A stretch of 64,000 nt of DNA from Eubacteriales bacterium (GTDB lineage: Bacteria; Bacillota; Clostridia; Christensenellales; CAG-138): contig DAOTGE010000002.1 of the NCBI GenBank assembly GCA_035446965.1, positions 12,715-76,714 on the forward strand, read 5' to 3'. The translations under genes and the position numbers were made by a program. The notes under the pieces were generated by a model. It saw only the letters and a list, made by a program, of their open reading frames with translations. It made no database searches and was not told the DNA's origin. This document shows, one piece after another, positions 23,725-36,910 of the stretch (its first letter is position 1; each line of letters opens with the position of its first letter).

Positions 23725-26136
23725 TTACCTGGAACGGGGCTTGCGCATTCCCTTTAGACCCTTAAAGAAACGGCCGTTGAGCATCGTTACGATCGCGTCC
23801 ACCTGCTTTGGCCCAAACCCGCTGCCGCCCATGGTCAGCATGCGCAGCGGTGATTCAAACACCAGATAGTCGACCATTTCTCCGGCTTCTTCGTCGTCTT
23901 TCATCTTTGCGGCGACGCGTTTGCCGACGAGCACGAGGATGCGCCCGAGCAGCGTGTGTTTTGCCTCGGCAAGGGTGGAATTGCGTGTGAACGGATCGCC
24001 TTTTTTCATGCTCCGCTGTGGAATCGGCCTGCCGAGCAGCGCGCTGAACGCGTCGTCCGGCACGATGACACCATTTGAAAGATCGTAGTAGCAGGGTGCG
24101 CTTTTGCGAAAATCCGGGATGGTCTGGCCGCCGTCCGCTTGCGCGCGAACGCTTGCGCGCAGGCGAATATCGCGGCTGGAGGCGGAGATGCGGATTTCAT
24201 ATTCGCCGCCCTCGACGCGCCAGCCGGACGCTTTTGTGTTGTAGTAACTGATATCGCGGCGATCGAGCGTAAACGAAACGGTCTTCGTTTCGCCCGGATG
24301 CAGAAGGACTTTCTCAAAGCCCTTGAGCTCCTGCTCCGCGCAGAACATCACGTCCGAACGATGCGAAACGTACAACTGTACGACTTCGCCGCCGGTGACA
24401 CTGCCGGTGTTGGTTATGTCGCAGGAAATTTCCAGCGTTTCGCCCGCGCTGAGCGACGAACCGCTCAGGCGCAGGTTGGAATAGGCAAACGACGTGTAGG
24501 AAAGCCCATAGCCGAACGGATAACGCACGGGTTTTTCCGCAGTGTCGAAATACCGGTAGCCGACAAAGATGCTTTCGCGGTATTCCACCGTATGCGGATA
24601 GCCGGGGAAGTATGCGAAGGAGGGGCTGTCCGCCAGCGTCAGCGGCCAGCTTTCCGGCAGTTTGCCGGAGGGGCAGCGCCTTCCCGTGATCAGGTCCGCC
24701 GCGGCACCGCCGACCGCTTCGCCGCCGAGGTAGGTCAAAAGAATCGATTTTGCGCCGGATTCCCAGGCCATGTCGACGACCGAGCCGCAGGCGACCACGG
24801 CGACGACGTTCGGATTGGCCTGTGCAACCCGGCGGACCAGCTCGATGTGGTTCTTCGGCATGTCCAGCTTCGCGCGGTCGAACCCTTCGGACTCGTAGCG
24901 GTCCGGCAGGCCGATGAACAGGATGGCCGCGTCTTTGCCGCGTGCGGCTTCGCAGGCTTCCCGGAGGAGCGCTTCGTCCGGCTCGTCGCTGGTTACGTCG
25001 TATCCGTCGGCATATTCGGCACGGATGCCGAGCGTCTGGAGTTCCTCCAGCGCGCTGTCGAGCTTGACGGGCACGACCTTGGAGCTGCCCGCGCCCTGAT
25101 AGCGCGGCGTTTTGGCGAACGTGCCGATCACGGCGACGCTTGCGCCGGGTTTGAGCGGCAGCAGCGCGTCTTCGTTTTTGAGCAGCACGGCGGAGCGGGC
25201 CGCGGCTTCCCGCGCGAACGCGTGGTGCGCTTCGTGCTTTTGTACAAGCGGCTTTCGCTCGGCGTTTGCGCGCAGAACGAGCGCGCAGACGCGCTCGGCA
25301 CAGCGGTCGACGTCCTCCTGTTTGAGTTCGCCGCGTTCCACGGCGGCGGCGATTTCGTCGTCCCGGTACGAATCCACATACGGCATTTCCAGATCGAGGC
25401 CAGCGCTTACGCCGAGGTTGCGGTCGTTGACCGCGCCCCAGTCGGACATCACGAGCCCGTCGAATCCCCATTGATTGCGCAGGACGTCGGTCAAAAGCCA
25501 CTTGTTCTCGCTCGCGTGCAGACCCTTAACGCGGTTGTAGGAGCACATCACCGTCCAGGGACGCGCGCTTTTGATTACGCGTTCAAAGGAAGAAAGGTAA
25601 AGCTCAAACATGGCGCGTTCGTCCGCGACGGAATCGACGATCAGGCGGCGCAGCTCCTGATTGTTGAGCGCGAAGTGCTTGACGCAGGCGCCGACGCCCT
25701 GGCTCTGCACGCCCTGCACGAATGCGCTCGCCAGTTCGCCGGAAACGACGGGGTCTTCGCTGAAATACTCAAAATTGCGGCCGCAGAGCGGGCTGCGCTT
25801 GCAGTTGAGCCCCGGGCCGAGGATGACGGAAACGTCCTCCGCGCGGCATTCCTCCGCAATCGCGGAGCCGAGGGAGCGCAGTAAGTCCCGGTCGAACGAA
25901 CACGCGGAAAGCGACGCGGTCGGGAAGCAGGTTGCCGGGAGCGTGCGCTTTTTTTCAGCTCCTTCGCCCGCCGCCTCTTTTCGCAGACCGTGCGGCCCGT
26001 CCGACACCGCGACGGCGGACAGGCCGAGCCGTTCGACCGGTTTGGTGCGCCAGCTGTCCGCTCCGCTGAGCAGACGCGTTTTTTCCTGCAGCGTCATCTG
26101 GGAAACGAGTTTTTTTGCCTCATCGTTAAAATTCAT
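23725..26136 (-). CDS. GH3 family beta-glucosidase/exo-glycosidase
   Basis: GLNCKRSPLCGRNFEYFSEDP, MSDWGAV (nucleophile Asp region), and a C-terminal fibronectin-III-like domain. 803 aa. Confidence 0.85.
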   Translation of the reverse strand: MNFNDEAKKLVSQMTLQEKTRLLSGADSWRTKPVERLGLSAVAVSDGPHGLRKEAAGEGAEKKRTLPATCFPTASLSACSFDRDLLRSLGSAIAEECRAEDVSVILGPGLNCKRSPLCGRNFEYFSEDPVVSGELASAFVQGVQSQGVGACVKHFALNNQELRRLIVDSVADERAMFELYLSSFERVIKSARPWTVMCSYNRVKGLHASENKWLLTDVLRNQWGFDGLVMSDWGAVNDRNLGVSAGLDLEMPYVDSYRDDEIAAAVERGELKQEDVDRCAERVCALVLRANAERKPLVQKHEAHHAFAREAAARSAVLLKNEDALLPLKPGASVAVIGTFAKTPRYQGAGSSKVVPVKLDSALEELQTLGIRAEYADGYDVTSDEPDEALLREACEAARGKDAAILFIGLPDRYESEGFDRAKLDMPKNHIELVRRVAQANPNVVAVVACGSVVDMAWESGAKSILLTYLGGEAVGGAAADLITGRRCPSGKLPESWPLTLADSPSFAYFPGYPHTVEYRESIFVGYRYFDTAEKPVRYPFGYGLSYTSFAYSNLRLSGSSLSAGETLEISCDITNTGSVTGGEVVQLYVSHRSDVMFCAEQELKGFEKVLLHPGETKTVSFTLDRRDISYYNTKASGWRVEGGEYEIRISASSRDIRLRASVRAQADGGQTIPDFRKSAPCYYDLSNGVIVPDDAFSALLGRPIPQRSMKKGDPFTRNSTLAEAKHTLLGRILVLVGKRVAAKMKDDEEAGEMVDYLVFESPLRMLTMGGSGFGPKQVDAIVTMLNGRFFKGLKGMRKPRSR

Positions 26137-26332
26137 AACTGCACCTCCGCATAAAAAAATTATAGCATGGAACCTTGCCGGATCAAACAGAGCGTTTGTA
26201 TAAATCCAGGCAAAATAAGGAAAAATCCGGGGAGTCCGGCACGTGTTTGTACACGGAGTTCACAACCGGGGAAACGACGCGCTTGACACGCGGCGCTCTC
26301 GTGTGTTAGCGTTACGTTGAGGTTCAAGAGAA

Positions 26333-26432
26333 TCTCCCGCGAAAAGGCAAACCCCGTGAAAACGGGCGGCGCAAAACTACAGGGTCTACCGGCGCGCTCT
26401 TACGCCTATGACAGCCAGTTGCCGAACGAGTA
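26333..26432 (+). promoter_or_regulatory. Class I cyclic-di-GMP riboswitch (GEMM-I) aptamer
   Basis: AAAGGCAAACC-CCGT-GAAA-ACGG-GCGGCGCAAAACTACAGGGTCTACC...CCTATGACAGCCAGTTGCCGAAC. This matches the GEMM-I pattern GGCAAACC-(stem)-GNRA-(stem)-G..CGCAAA...GGGUCUA...AUGAC.GCCAG.UUGCCGAA, including the GAAA tetraloop hairpin. Confidence 0.72.
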
Positions 26433-26465
26433 CTCCCGGAGAAACCCCCGGGTGCATATGTGTTT

Positions 26466-26505
26466 TCGGCAGCATGGCGGCAGAAAAAGCCGGCTGCTTT
26501 TTTAG
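26466..26505 (+). terminator. Intrinsic terminator forming the riboswitch expression platform
   Basis: GCAGC-atgg-CGGC-agaaaaa-GCCG-GCTGC followed by TTTTTT. It is preceded by a CCCGG/CCGGG hairpin. Confidence 0.55.
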
Positions 26506-26777
26506 TTCGGTCCATGGGGTGAAGCGTTCCGGGCAAAACCTAAACCGTCCGACGGCGAAAGGGGCTGGCGCATGATCTGAAAGTACAATTTTGCAGGGCG
26601 TGTACAGACTGATACGTTTCGGCCCGGATGCAAACAGGGGAACCGGATGCGAAGGGGACGCCGGCCCTGCGGTGTGTTTCAATTTGAAAAAAGCCGCCGC
26701 GTTTATGCGGCATCACGAACTTATGCGGATTTGCGCCAATCCGGAGGTGGACGTTTGGGCACAGCCGTTTCACGCCT

Positions 26778-26805
26778 TTGAATTGATTCAGCCTTGTGGT
26801 ATTAT
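26778..26805 (+). promoter_or_regulatory. Sigma-A type promoter proximal to the HD-GYP gene
   Basis: TTGAAT (26778-26783), 16-nt spacer ending in TGG, TATTAT (26800-26805). Confidence 0.45.
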
Positions 26806-26873
26806 ATATGAAGTGGTAACCTATGGGGTCGGGCACATGTACAATGCAAAAAAAGCGATACCATAAGGCGAAA

Positions 26874-27818
26874 ATGGGTGTTGAGATGGAAGGAATCGTA
26901 TTTAACCGCCGTGGGACAGGTTTGCCCGCCGGAGGCGAAAACGAAGCGATTACGGCTCTTCTGGCAAAGCAGGGGAGTCTTGAGATTATGTCGCAGAAGA
27001 TCGGCGGCGAGTCCGTTGTTTGGCTTATACCCGCGAGCGATCCGGAAGCGATGGAGTTTTTCTTTATTCACGAAGGCGGCGTTGAGCTTGCGCTGGACGA
27101 CGGGCCGGTGGCGCTGGGCCCCGGCGAATCGTTTATGGCGCGCGGGCTTAAGCGCGATATCCCGGTCAAGCTGCTTGGAGACACGCGAATCCTGTATGTG
27201 ACCAACTGTCCCGCGTTCGAATCCGTTTCCCGCTTTGAAGAGAGTTTGACCGCGCTATTGATGCGCATCAACGAAAAAGATCACTATACATACCGCCACA
27301 GCGCGGCGGTGCTGAAATATTCGCTTTGTCTGTTCGATGCGCTGGAACCGGGCATACAGGGCGTTTCCCGGGACGATCTGGGTGTGGCCGCGCTGTTCCA
27401 CGACGTTGGCAAGTGCTTTATCCCGGTGGAAATTCTGCAAAAACCGGGCAGTCTGGAACCGGCGGAGATCCGCTATATTCTGCGCCATCCAATCGACAGC
27501 GGGCGGCTGCTGAAAGCCGAATTCGGCTTTCAGGTGGCAGAAATCGCCATGAATCATCATGAGCGGCTCGACGGGAGCGGATACCCGCGCGGGCTGACGG
27601 CGGAGGACATCAGCCTTCCGGCAAGGATCGTTGCGGTTGCGGACGCATTCGACGCGATGACGACCGACCGCGGGTACAACGAAGTGAAAACATCCGAGCA
27701 GGCCGCGGAGGAACTGGCTTCGCTCGATGAAAAATTTGACAGTATGGTAACAGAAACGCTGCGCAGGCTGATCGAAAGCGACGCGTTCAAAATGGAGGAG
27801 AATGAAACGGATGAATAA
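26874..27818 (+). CDS. Cupin-domain / HD-GYP-domain cyclic-di-GMP phosphodiesterase
   Basis: N-terminal cupin-like barrel (MEFFFIHEGGVELALDDGPVALGPGESF). HD-GYP signatures AALFHDVGK and HHERLDGSGYPRG. The start is uncertain (26874 or 26886; the ORF track gives 26823). Confidence 0.85.
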   Translation: MGVEMEGIVFNRRGTGLPAGGENEAITALLAKQGSLEIMSQKIGGESVVWLIPASDPEAMEFFFIHEGGVELALDDGPVALGPGESFMARGLKRDIPVKLLGDTRILYVTNCPAFESVSRFEESLTALLMRINEKDHYTYRHSAAVLKYSLCLFDALEPGIQGVSRDDLGVAALFHDVGKCFIPVEILQKPGSLEPAEIRYILRHPIDSGRLLKAEFGFQVAEIAMNHHERLDGSGYPRGLTAEDISLPARIVAVADAFDAMTTDRGYNEVKTSEQAAEELASLDEKFDSMVTETLRRLIESDAFKMEENETDE

Positions 27819-28269
27819 GCTGGACAAATGCGGCTATTGGCTGATGCTATCGGATTACGATATGGGAACGATCGACGCGCTGATTCAGGGGGAACGCTGG
27901 GTTTACGTGGCATTTTTATGCCAGCAGGCGACCGAACGGCAGCTTAAGGCGATGTATGTGTATTTCATGGAGGCGGAACCGCCTAAAACGCACAACGTCA
28001 ACTTCCTTTTTTCCAAGATAACGGACGGCGCGGCGTTTAAAAACGGAGTGGATTTCGAGCGTTTTTCCAAAGGCCGCAACGAATGCGAAGACTTTTTAAT
28101 GGACGTGATGTTCTATTATATGTCCGACTATCCGTTTTCCTACAAAAACATCACCAGCCGCTTCGTGAAAAAAGATCTTGCGCTGGAACTCTACGAAAAA
28201 ACGAAAAAGTACGTTCTCTGGCTGCGCGGGTTCCTGCCGGAAATCGAAGTTCCGGGCATCCCGGAGTAA
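27802..28269 (+). CDS. HEPN-domain protein
   Basis: YWLMLSDYDMGTIDALIQGERWVYVAFLCQQATERQLKAMYVY...PKTHNVNFL follows the HEPN (PF05168-like) helical pattern. It overlaps the HD-GYP stop by 17 nt. No Rx4-6H motif is seen. Confidence 0.65.
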   Translation: MKRMNKLDKCGYWLMLSDYDMGTIDALIQGERWVYVAFLCQQATERQLKAMYVYFMEAEPPKTHNVNFLFSKITDGAAFKNGVDFERFSKGRNECEDFLMDVMFYYMSDYPFSYKNITSRFVKKDLALELYEKTKKYVLWLRGFLPEIEVPGIPE

Positions 28270-36823: not shown

Positions 36824-36910
36824 TGGTGCCGAAGGTGGGACTCGAACCCACACGTTGTCGCCAACAACGGATTTTGAGTCCGTCACGTCTGCCAATTCCA
36901 TCACTTCGGC
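36824..36910 (-). tRNA. tRNA-Leu (anticodon CAA), CCA encoded
   Basis: Minus strand: GCCGAAG acceptor stem, anticodon stem-loop ACGGA-CTCAAAA-TCCGT, long variable arm, T-arm GTGGG-TTCGAGT-CCCAC, CTTCGGC-ACCA. 87 nt. Confidence 0.9.

Follow-up and report, generated by a model that had tools for sequence, protein, structure and literature searches.

Few RNA sensors are as well characterised as class I c-di-GMP riboswitches, and the one present here would be caught by any annotation based on Rfam. The question raised by this locus is what such an element controls, and in which direction, when it stands in a long gap between called genes and the operon behind it has partly decayed. Throughout, the window means the whole 64-kb stretch of DNA that was analysed. 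The sequence quoted in the preliminary description is found where it had been placed, at 26333-26505.

The class I aptamer and its relatives

The whole window was scanned with cmscan against all 4227 families of Rfam 15. Two matches exceed the gathering thresholds, namely: RF01051 (c-di-GMP-I) at 26336-26426 on the forward strand, which is the sole riboswitch, and a tRNA gene with a long variable arm at 36827-36910 on the reverse strand (RF00005, 53.5 bits). The RF01051 match had been proposed earlier as the check on the family assignment, and with 69.5 bits it reaches about twice the gathering score of 35 (E 1.5e-11), running end to end over model positions 1-87 of 87. RF01051 is also the top-scoring family of its clan, the variant families scoring lower, and a permissive Rfam scan of 26100-26950 yields no credible second structured RNA in the gap. 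Such a score is far beyond chance, and the aptamer is a genuine, ordinary class I (GEMM-I) c-di-GMP riboswitch, a standard member of RF01051. Its parts are as follows.

26336-26426 (+), c-di-GMP-I (GEMM-I) aptamer; 95.9 bits with our own model R1 (see below), backed by covariation
26347-26372 (+), P2 of the aptamer, with the GAAA loop at 26358-61
26375-26420 (+), P3 of the aptamer, with a variant tetraloop receptor, UCUACC/UAUGA, at 26385-90 and 26407-11

The GEMM-I core is laid out as had been claimed from the sequence: the P2 stem (26352-57 with 26362-67) is capped by a GNRA tetraloop, and the CGCAAA junction and the 3' GCCAGUUGCCGAA strand are both present. Most relatives carry the 11-nt receptor CCUAAG/UAUGG at the place of the variant receptor; of the changes that separate the two, C-G to U-A is compensated, and A to C is common to six other aptamers. 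P1 lies outside the RF01051 model. RNAalifold predicts no P1 on 43 flanked sequences, but the same alignment also missed P3 and so is not used as evidence. By hand, P1 candidates of 3-4 bp can be drawn (ACUC/GAGU in relatives, CUC/GAG in the window), while the 5' flank forms a hairpin of its own. The expected P1/P2/P3 fold is accordingly borne out for P2 and P3, by the covariation described next, and unconfirmed for P1.

In order to place the element among its relatives, species-representative genomes were scanned with the downstream HD-GYP protein, giving 75 loci, most of them in uncultured Clostridia with labels such as Christensenellaceae/Christensenellales or Oscillospiraceae. More than 60 related genomes have the same aptamer ahead of orthologous genes, and RF01051 is matched at the syntenic position in all 18 relatives scanned with Rfam (70-82 bits). 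A covariance model, R1, built from the relatives' syntenic RF01051 matches finds 81 aptamers in 76 sources, plus 18 in metagenome loci. When the 81 are aligned by structure, 95.1% of the cells are standard pairs and double changes occur in 14 of 21 pairs. None of 500 shuffles reaches the observed values, and slid partners leave 24-40% paired. Double changes are found at all six pairs of the GNRA-capped P2 helix, and the P3 pairs are kept at 93-100% with covariation. At columns conserved at 85% or more, the window has no private substitution, save variants that are common to other members or compensated, and none of its own changes touches an invariant column.

The closest relative, L082, shares 89% HD-GYP identity with the window. 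Six independent metagenome contigs that include the GH3 gene next door show 100% identity throughout the gap and are thus uninformative. Two loci carry paired aptamers: in L066 a tandem of GEMM-I aptamers precedes the HD-GYP gene (2023-2107 and 2197-2281), and L054 has two in divergent orientation (2453-2536 on the reverse strand and 2695-2779 on the forward strand).

Gap, leader and downstream cassette

The aptamer had been assigned to a 690-nt gene-free gap. The gap between called ORFs is real (26137-26822), but it holds a minimal nucleotidyltransferase (MNT) pseudogene, and the apparently empty stretch is fully explained by two promoters, as predicted, a leader and this pseudogene. The features of the gap and its neighbours are listed below.

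23725-26136 (-), GH3 beta-glucosidase gene, the divergent neighbour
26186-26159 (-), promoter-like site TTGATC-16-TGnTATAAT, about 25 nt upstream of the divergent GH3 gene and fully conserved in L082
26283-26312 (+), predicted riboswitch promoter, with -35 TTGACA at 26283-26288 and extended -10 TGtTAGCGT at 26304-12
26319-26336 (+), 5' hairpin abutting the aptamer (GAGGUU...AAUCUC), from ViennaRNA folds
26430-26455 (+), variable linker hairpin between aptamer and platform, from folds
26461-26478 (+), switching strand, able to pair with 26414-26428 (antiterminator) or 26489-26498 (terminator)
26468-26503 (+), intrinsic terminator: hairpin 26468-26498, -15.4 kcal/mol, and U6 tract 26498-26503
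26534-26866 (+), MNT pseudogene, with an in-frame TGA at 26573-26575 and its GSxAxG and DxD motifs lost
26778-26805 (+), promoter-like site TTGAAT-16-TGgTATTAT from a consensus scan, inside the MNT pseudogene and 80 nt upstream of the HD-GYP start
26886-27818 (+), cupin and HD-GYP gene, 310 aa from a conserved MEGIVF start (Pfam HD_5 1.5e-34, HD 6e-18, weak Cupin_2)
27802-28269 (+), HEPN-domain gene (Pfam HEPN 8.4e-09), starting within the 3' end of the HD-GYP gene and closing the cassette

The riboswitch promoter is not called by the promoter scan and was read from the sequence. About 45 orthologous leaders have the TTGACA equally spaced from the aptamer, with TGtGATAAT as their -10; in the window, L007 and L082 the -10 is weaker (TAGCGT in the window vs. 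GATAAT in relatives). Transcription is predicted to start near 26319, where the 5' hairpin begins. This hairpin, which lies outside the Rfam model, keeps its structure while its sequence changes across orthologs (L007-L073): it reads GGAGGUU...AACCUCC in L082, and GGAUAAG...CUUAUCC or GAGCU...AGCUC at the same position in distant relatives.

Two genes occupy the corresponding gap in relatives, encoding a protein of about 125 aa with a signal peptide and an MNT of about 113 aa with Polbeta/NTP_transf_2 domains. In tblastn searches with the MNT proteins of L007, L009 and L033, the MNT frame of the window aligns without gaps at 42-53% identity (E down to 1e-26), good conservation being left only in the C-terminal 40 codons. 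The 91-aa ORF of this frame has no Pfam match, and the intact orthologs match Polbeta/NTP_transf_2. We also considered truncation of the MNT gene by deletion, and rejected it: the alignment is full-length and gapless, with an in-frame stop and lost motifs, so the gene is degenerate. The same TGA is present in L082, which has lost a further 150 nt (equivalent to 26607-26756 of the window). We read the MNT of the window as a decaying pseudogene. The true deletion in the window is that of the upstream secreted-protein gene.

The order riboswitch, secreted protein, MNT, cupin-HD-GYP and HEPN is found in about 55 of the 75 genomes. As read from gene order and content, about 55 related Clostridia of gut and digester type keep the cassette, which has partly decayed in the window genome; there the distance from aptamer to HD-GYP gene is 460 nt vs. 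900-1000 nt in most relatives. The HD-GYP protein has complete HD and HHExxDGxGYP motifs, and its orthologs start at MEGI(V/I)F, aligning from query residue 22. HEPN follows the HD-GYP gene in about 55 relatives; in the window it is intact, although its MNT partner has decayed.

Several other candidates within the gap were tried and set aside. An 18-nt inverted repeat (26486-26503/26687-26704), with arms 83% complementary and flanking 183 nt, could recall the invertible DNA switch of C. difficile flgB, and was rejected as chance. One arm is the 3' side of the terminator, and the other lies in the pseudogene segment deleted in L082; no inverted variant of 26486-26704 occurs among the six metagenome contigs, all identical over the gap. 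A terminator-like hairpin on the reverse strand (26712-26695) falls in the decaying pseudogene segment deleted in L082 and is not conserved. Matches to isrK and DnaX (E 1.8-5.6, below threshold) likewise lie within the decaying pseudogene and are not conserved.

The promoter-like site at 26778-26805 bears on whether the riboswitch still reaches its genes. It is sigma-70-like, and may be an internal promoter from which HD-GYP and HEPN are expressed without the riboswitch. Intact orthologs have ordinary coding sequence at this stretch, its codons reading ATGAAT...TATCAT, so the site may be an inherited coincidence. If it were a promoter, aptamer and terminator would be intact but uncoupled from the genes, and the riboswitch transcript would be mostly a short terminated RNA, or a minor component of read-through. 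We regard such uncoupling as unlikely, though it has several points in its favour: the operon is decaying, with the secreted-protein gene absent, the MNT a pseudogene and 150 nt more lost in L082; the -10 element of the leader is weaker than in relatives; and L082 has the promoter-like site unchanged, in a stretch of 88% identity with blocks of 68-69% on either side. Against it, the aptamer and terminator are still constrained. Between the aptamers of the window and L082 there are two differences, both compensatory double changes from U-A to C-G, one in P2 and one in P3, with no damaging substitution, which argues that the aptamer structure is still under selection in the lineage of the window. 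Furthermore, identity to L082 is 88% in the aptamer and 83% in the terminator vs. 56% in the linker.

Expression platform and proposed circuit

A riboswitch that remains coupled to HD-GYP and HEPN would act through the terminator downstream of the aptamer. The hairpin and T6 tract noted in the preliminary description are present, the latter at 26498-26503; the hairpin, however, starts 41 nt past the end of the aptamer and not about 35. The terminator element GGCAGCuuGGC...GCcaGGCUGyC-U5-6 is conserved in relatives, and a hairpin of different sequence takes the place of the linker hairpin there.

The earlier suggestion of a transcription-termination switch is strengthened by the way in which the terminator, with its U6 tract, competes with an antiterminator that uses the aptamer 3' strand. 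In ViennaRNA folds, the leader adopts the antiterminator in its unconstrained minimum free energy structure (-65.5 kcal/mol), and the terminator with U6 once the aptamer is enforced. The antiterminator duplex of the window has an energy of -22.2 kcal/mol vs. -11.6 for shuffled strands. Complementarity for both terminator and antiterminator is found in 51-54 of 66 orthologous leaders, whose duplexes are near -20 kcal/mol vs. -12 for shuffles. The z-score of the whole-leader fold is unremarkable (-1.0 to -1.95). As the switching strand pairs either with the aptamer's 3' strand or within the terminator, ligand should favour termination (OFF). By this strand logic and the folds, the element is most likely a transcriptional OFF switch similar to Cd1, stopping transcription at high c-di-GMP.

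It should be noted that some GEMM-I members, e.g. Vc1 and pilM, are ON switches (PMC4744006, PMC9262584), and that the Sedimentibacter orthologs L068-L072 lack the terminator and have the aptamer close to the ribosome-binding site. An ON switch, or translational action instead of termination, is nevertheless very improbable in the window: the strand that competes with the terminator is the 3' strand of the aptamer itself, so that the aptamer is compatible with the terminator but not with the antiterminator, and the nearest start codon is 460 nt off.

Termination at high c-di-GMP leads to the following mechanism, which we infer with its start site, ligand binding, direction of regulation in vivo and enzymatic role of HD-GYP all taken as predicted. 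An mRNA starting near 26319 would carry the aptamer at its 5' end. With c-di-GMP bound, the aptamer 3' strand (26414-26428) would stay in P3 and the ligand pocket, leaving the switching strand free, such that the terminator hairpin (26468-26498) would form before U6 and polymerase would stop near 26503. In the ligand-free RNA, 26414-26428 would pair with 26461-26478 as the antiterminator, permitting read-through across the MNT pseudogene into the cupin-HD-GYP and HEPN genes. If HD-GYP is a c-di-GMP phosphodiesterase, the circuit would be double-negative, high c-di-GMP shutting off its own degrader in a positive feedback.

We consider it very probable that the locus is what this mechanism requires, i.e. 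a class I c-di-GMP aptamer heading an mRNA from about 26319 and serving as a transcriptional OFF switch for HD-GYP and HEPN. Several points count against this explanation. About 380 nt of untranslated RNA would lie between the terminator and the HD-GYP start, the first gene of the ancestral operon being deleted and the second a pseudogene. The unconfirmed P1, the weak -10, the candidate internal promoter and the unremarkable leader z-score also weigh against it, and an OFF switch on a c-di-GMP degrader departs from the homeostatic arrangement that one might expect. On balance, c-di-GMP probably controls HD-GYP and HEPN in this lineage of uncultured Clostridia, or did so until recently.

Only the conserved cassette and its reduction in the lineage of the window are new, and modestly so; the riboswitch as such contributes little. 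A search of the searchable literature returned no paper combining a c-di-GMP riboswitch with an HD-GYP and HEPN cassette, which is no proof of newness. We suggest tentatively, and with more doubt than confidence, that the riboswitch marks an undescribed four-gene cassette in about 55 uncultured Clostridia species, in which HD-GYP sits between the MNT and HEPN halves and the whole is silenced by c-di-GMP. Were this true, the cassette could form a bistable double-negative c-di-GMP loop, or an MNT/HEPN module gated by a second messenger. In the lineage of the window it would also be in the course of reduction to HD-GYP and HEPN, and the persistence of HEPN after the loss of MNT would mean that the two are no classical toxin-antitoxin system. 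A riboswitch-controlled cassette of MNT, HD-GYP and HEPN would be a candidate example of positive feedback in c-di-GMP signalling.

Ligand contacts and comparison with known riboswitches

The ligand assumed in this circuit was examined through the bases that contact it. Vc2 numbering was transferred via the Rfam consensus alignment, using the unpaired G20 and its spacing from A47: in Vc2, the unpaired G20 immediately precedes the G21-C46 pair, and A47 follows 27 nt after G20 (PMC4744006, PMC6140456). The equivalents in the window are given below.

26346 (+), G, equivalent of Vc2 G20 (model position 11)
26373 (+), A, equivalent of Vc2 A47 (model position 38)
26422 (+), C, equivalent of Vc2 C92 (model position 83)
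26370 and 26414 (+), C and G, equivalent of the Vc2 C44-G83 interhelical pair (model positions 35 and 74)

GEMM-Ib riboswitches for cGAMP have A at position 20, and wild-type Vc2, having G20, discriminates against cGAMP (PMC6140456). With G at 26346, the argument for c-di-GMP selectivity holds. The G and C that had been aligned to G20 and C92 are therefore correctly placed, and A47 and the C44-G83 pair are present as well (PMC6140456, PMC4744006). Judged by its contact bases, the aptamer is of the c-di-GMP and not the cGAMP selectivity type. There is hardly any probability that, like GEMM-Ib, it recognises 3'3'-cGAMP or accepts both dinucleotides. The folds of GEMM-I and GEMM-Ib can barely be told apart, and the position-20 equivalent is A in 11 of the 81 related aptamers (G in 70). 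Yet G is found both at 26346 and in every syntenic aptamer ahead of the four-gene cassette; the three syntenic aptamers of A type (Sedimentibacter L068-L070) stand before a lone HD-GYP gene; and Vc2 with the same G selects against cGAMP (PMC6140456).

A second GEMM-I aptamer lies just 3' of the HEPN gene in many relatives; the window is without one. Eight of these second aptamers have A at the position-20 equivalent, which is the G20A signature of GEMM-Ib riboswitches that recognise cGAMP or are bispecific. Their positions are as follows.

L009:5486-5575, L010:5487-5576, L013:5503-5592 and L021:1402-1493
L043:5428-5512, L044:5426-5510, L046:4905-4989 and L048:5430-5515

The second aptamer of L009 precedes genes for a type IV prepilin peptidase (Peptidase_A24) and TadE-like proteins, i.e. 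a Tad pilus locus.

Compared with known systems, the aptamer of the window, which reads as specific for c-di-GMP, shares its fold and Rfam model with the GEMM-Ib 3'3'-cGAMP riboswitches (Geobacter Gs1761, pilM). It differs from them in the G that replaces A at the position-20 equivalent and in its predicted OFF logic, pilM being ON (PMC6140456, PMC9262584). The resemblance to the structural reference, Vc2 of Vibrio cholerae, extends to G20, A47, C92, C44-G83, the P2 GAAA tetraloop and the presence of a receptor in P3 (PMC4744006, PMC6140456). Here the differences are the receptor sequence, UCUACC/UAUGA in place of CCUAAG/UAUGG, a variant also seen in a few relatives, and a P1 that is not evident in the window. 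Cd1 precedes flgB in Clostridioides difficile and switches transcription OFF; its aptamer forms together with the terminator, and its antiterminator is built with the 3' strand of the aptamer (PMC9262584). It regulates flagellar genes, whereas an HD-GYP and HEPN cassette follows in the window, and the terminator of the window is succeeded by a pseudogene and not by an invertible switch. The two elements nonetheless belong to the same Rfam family, both have a long leader between terminator and first gene, and, as the sequence and folds of the window suggest, they would share the same OFF strand logic.
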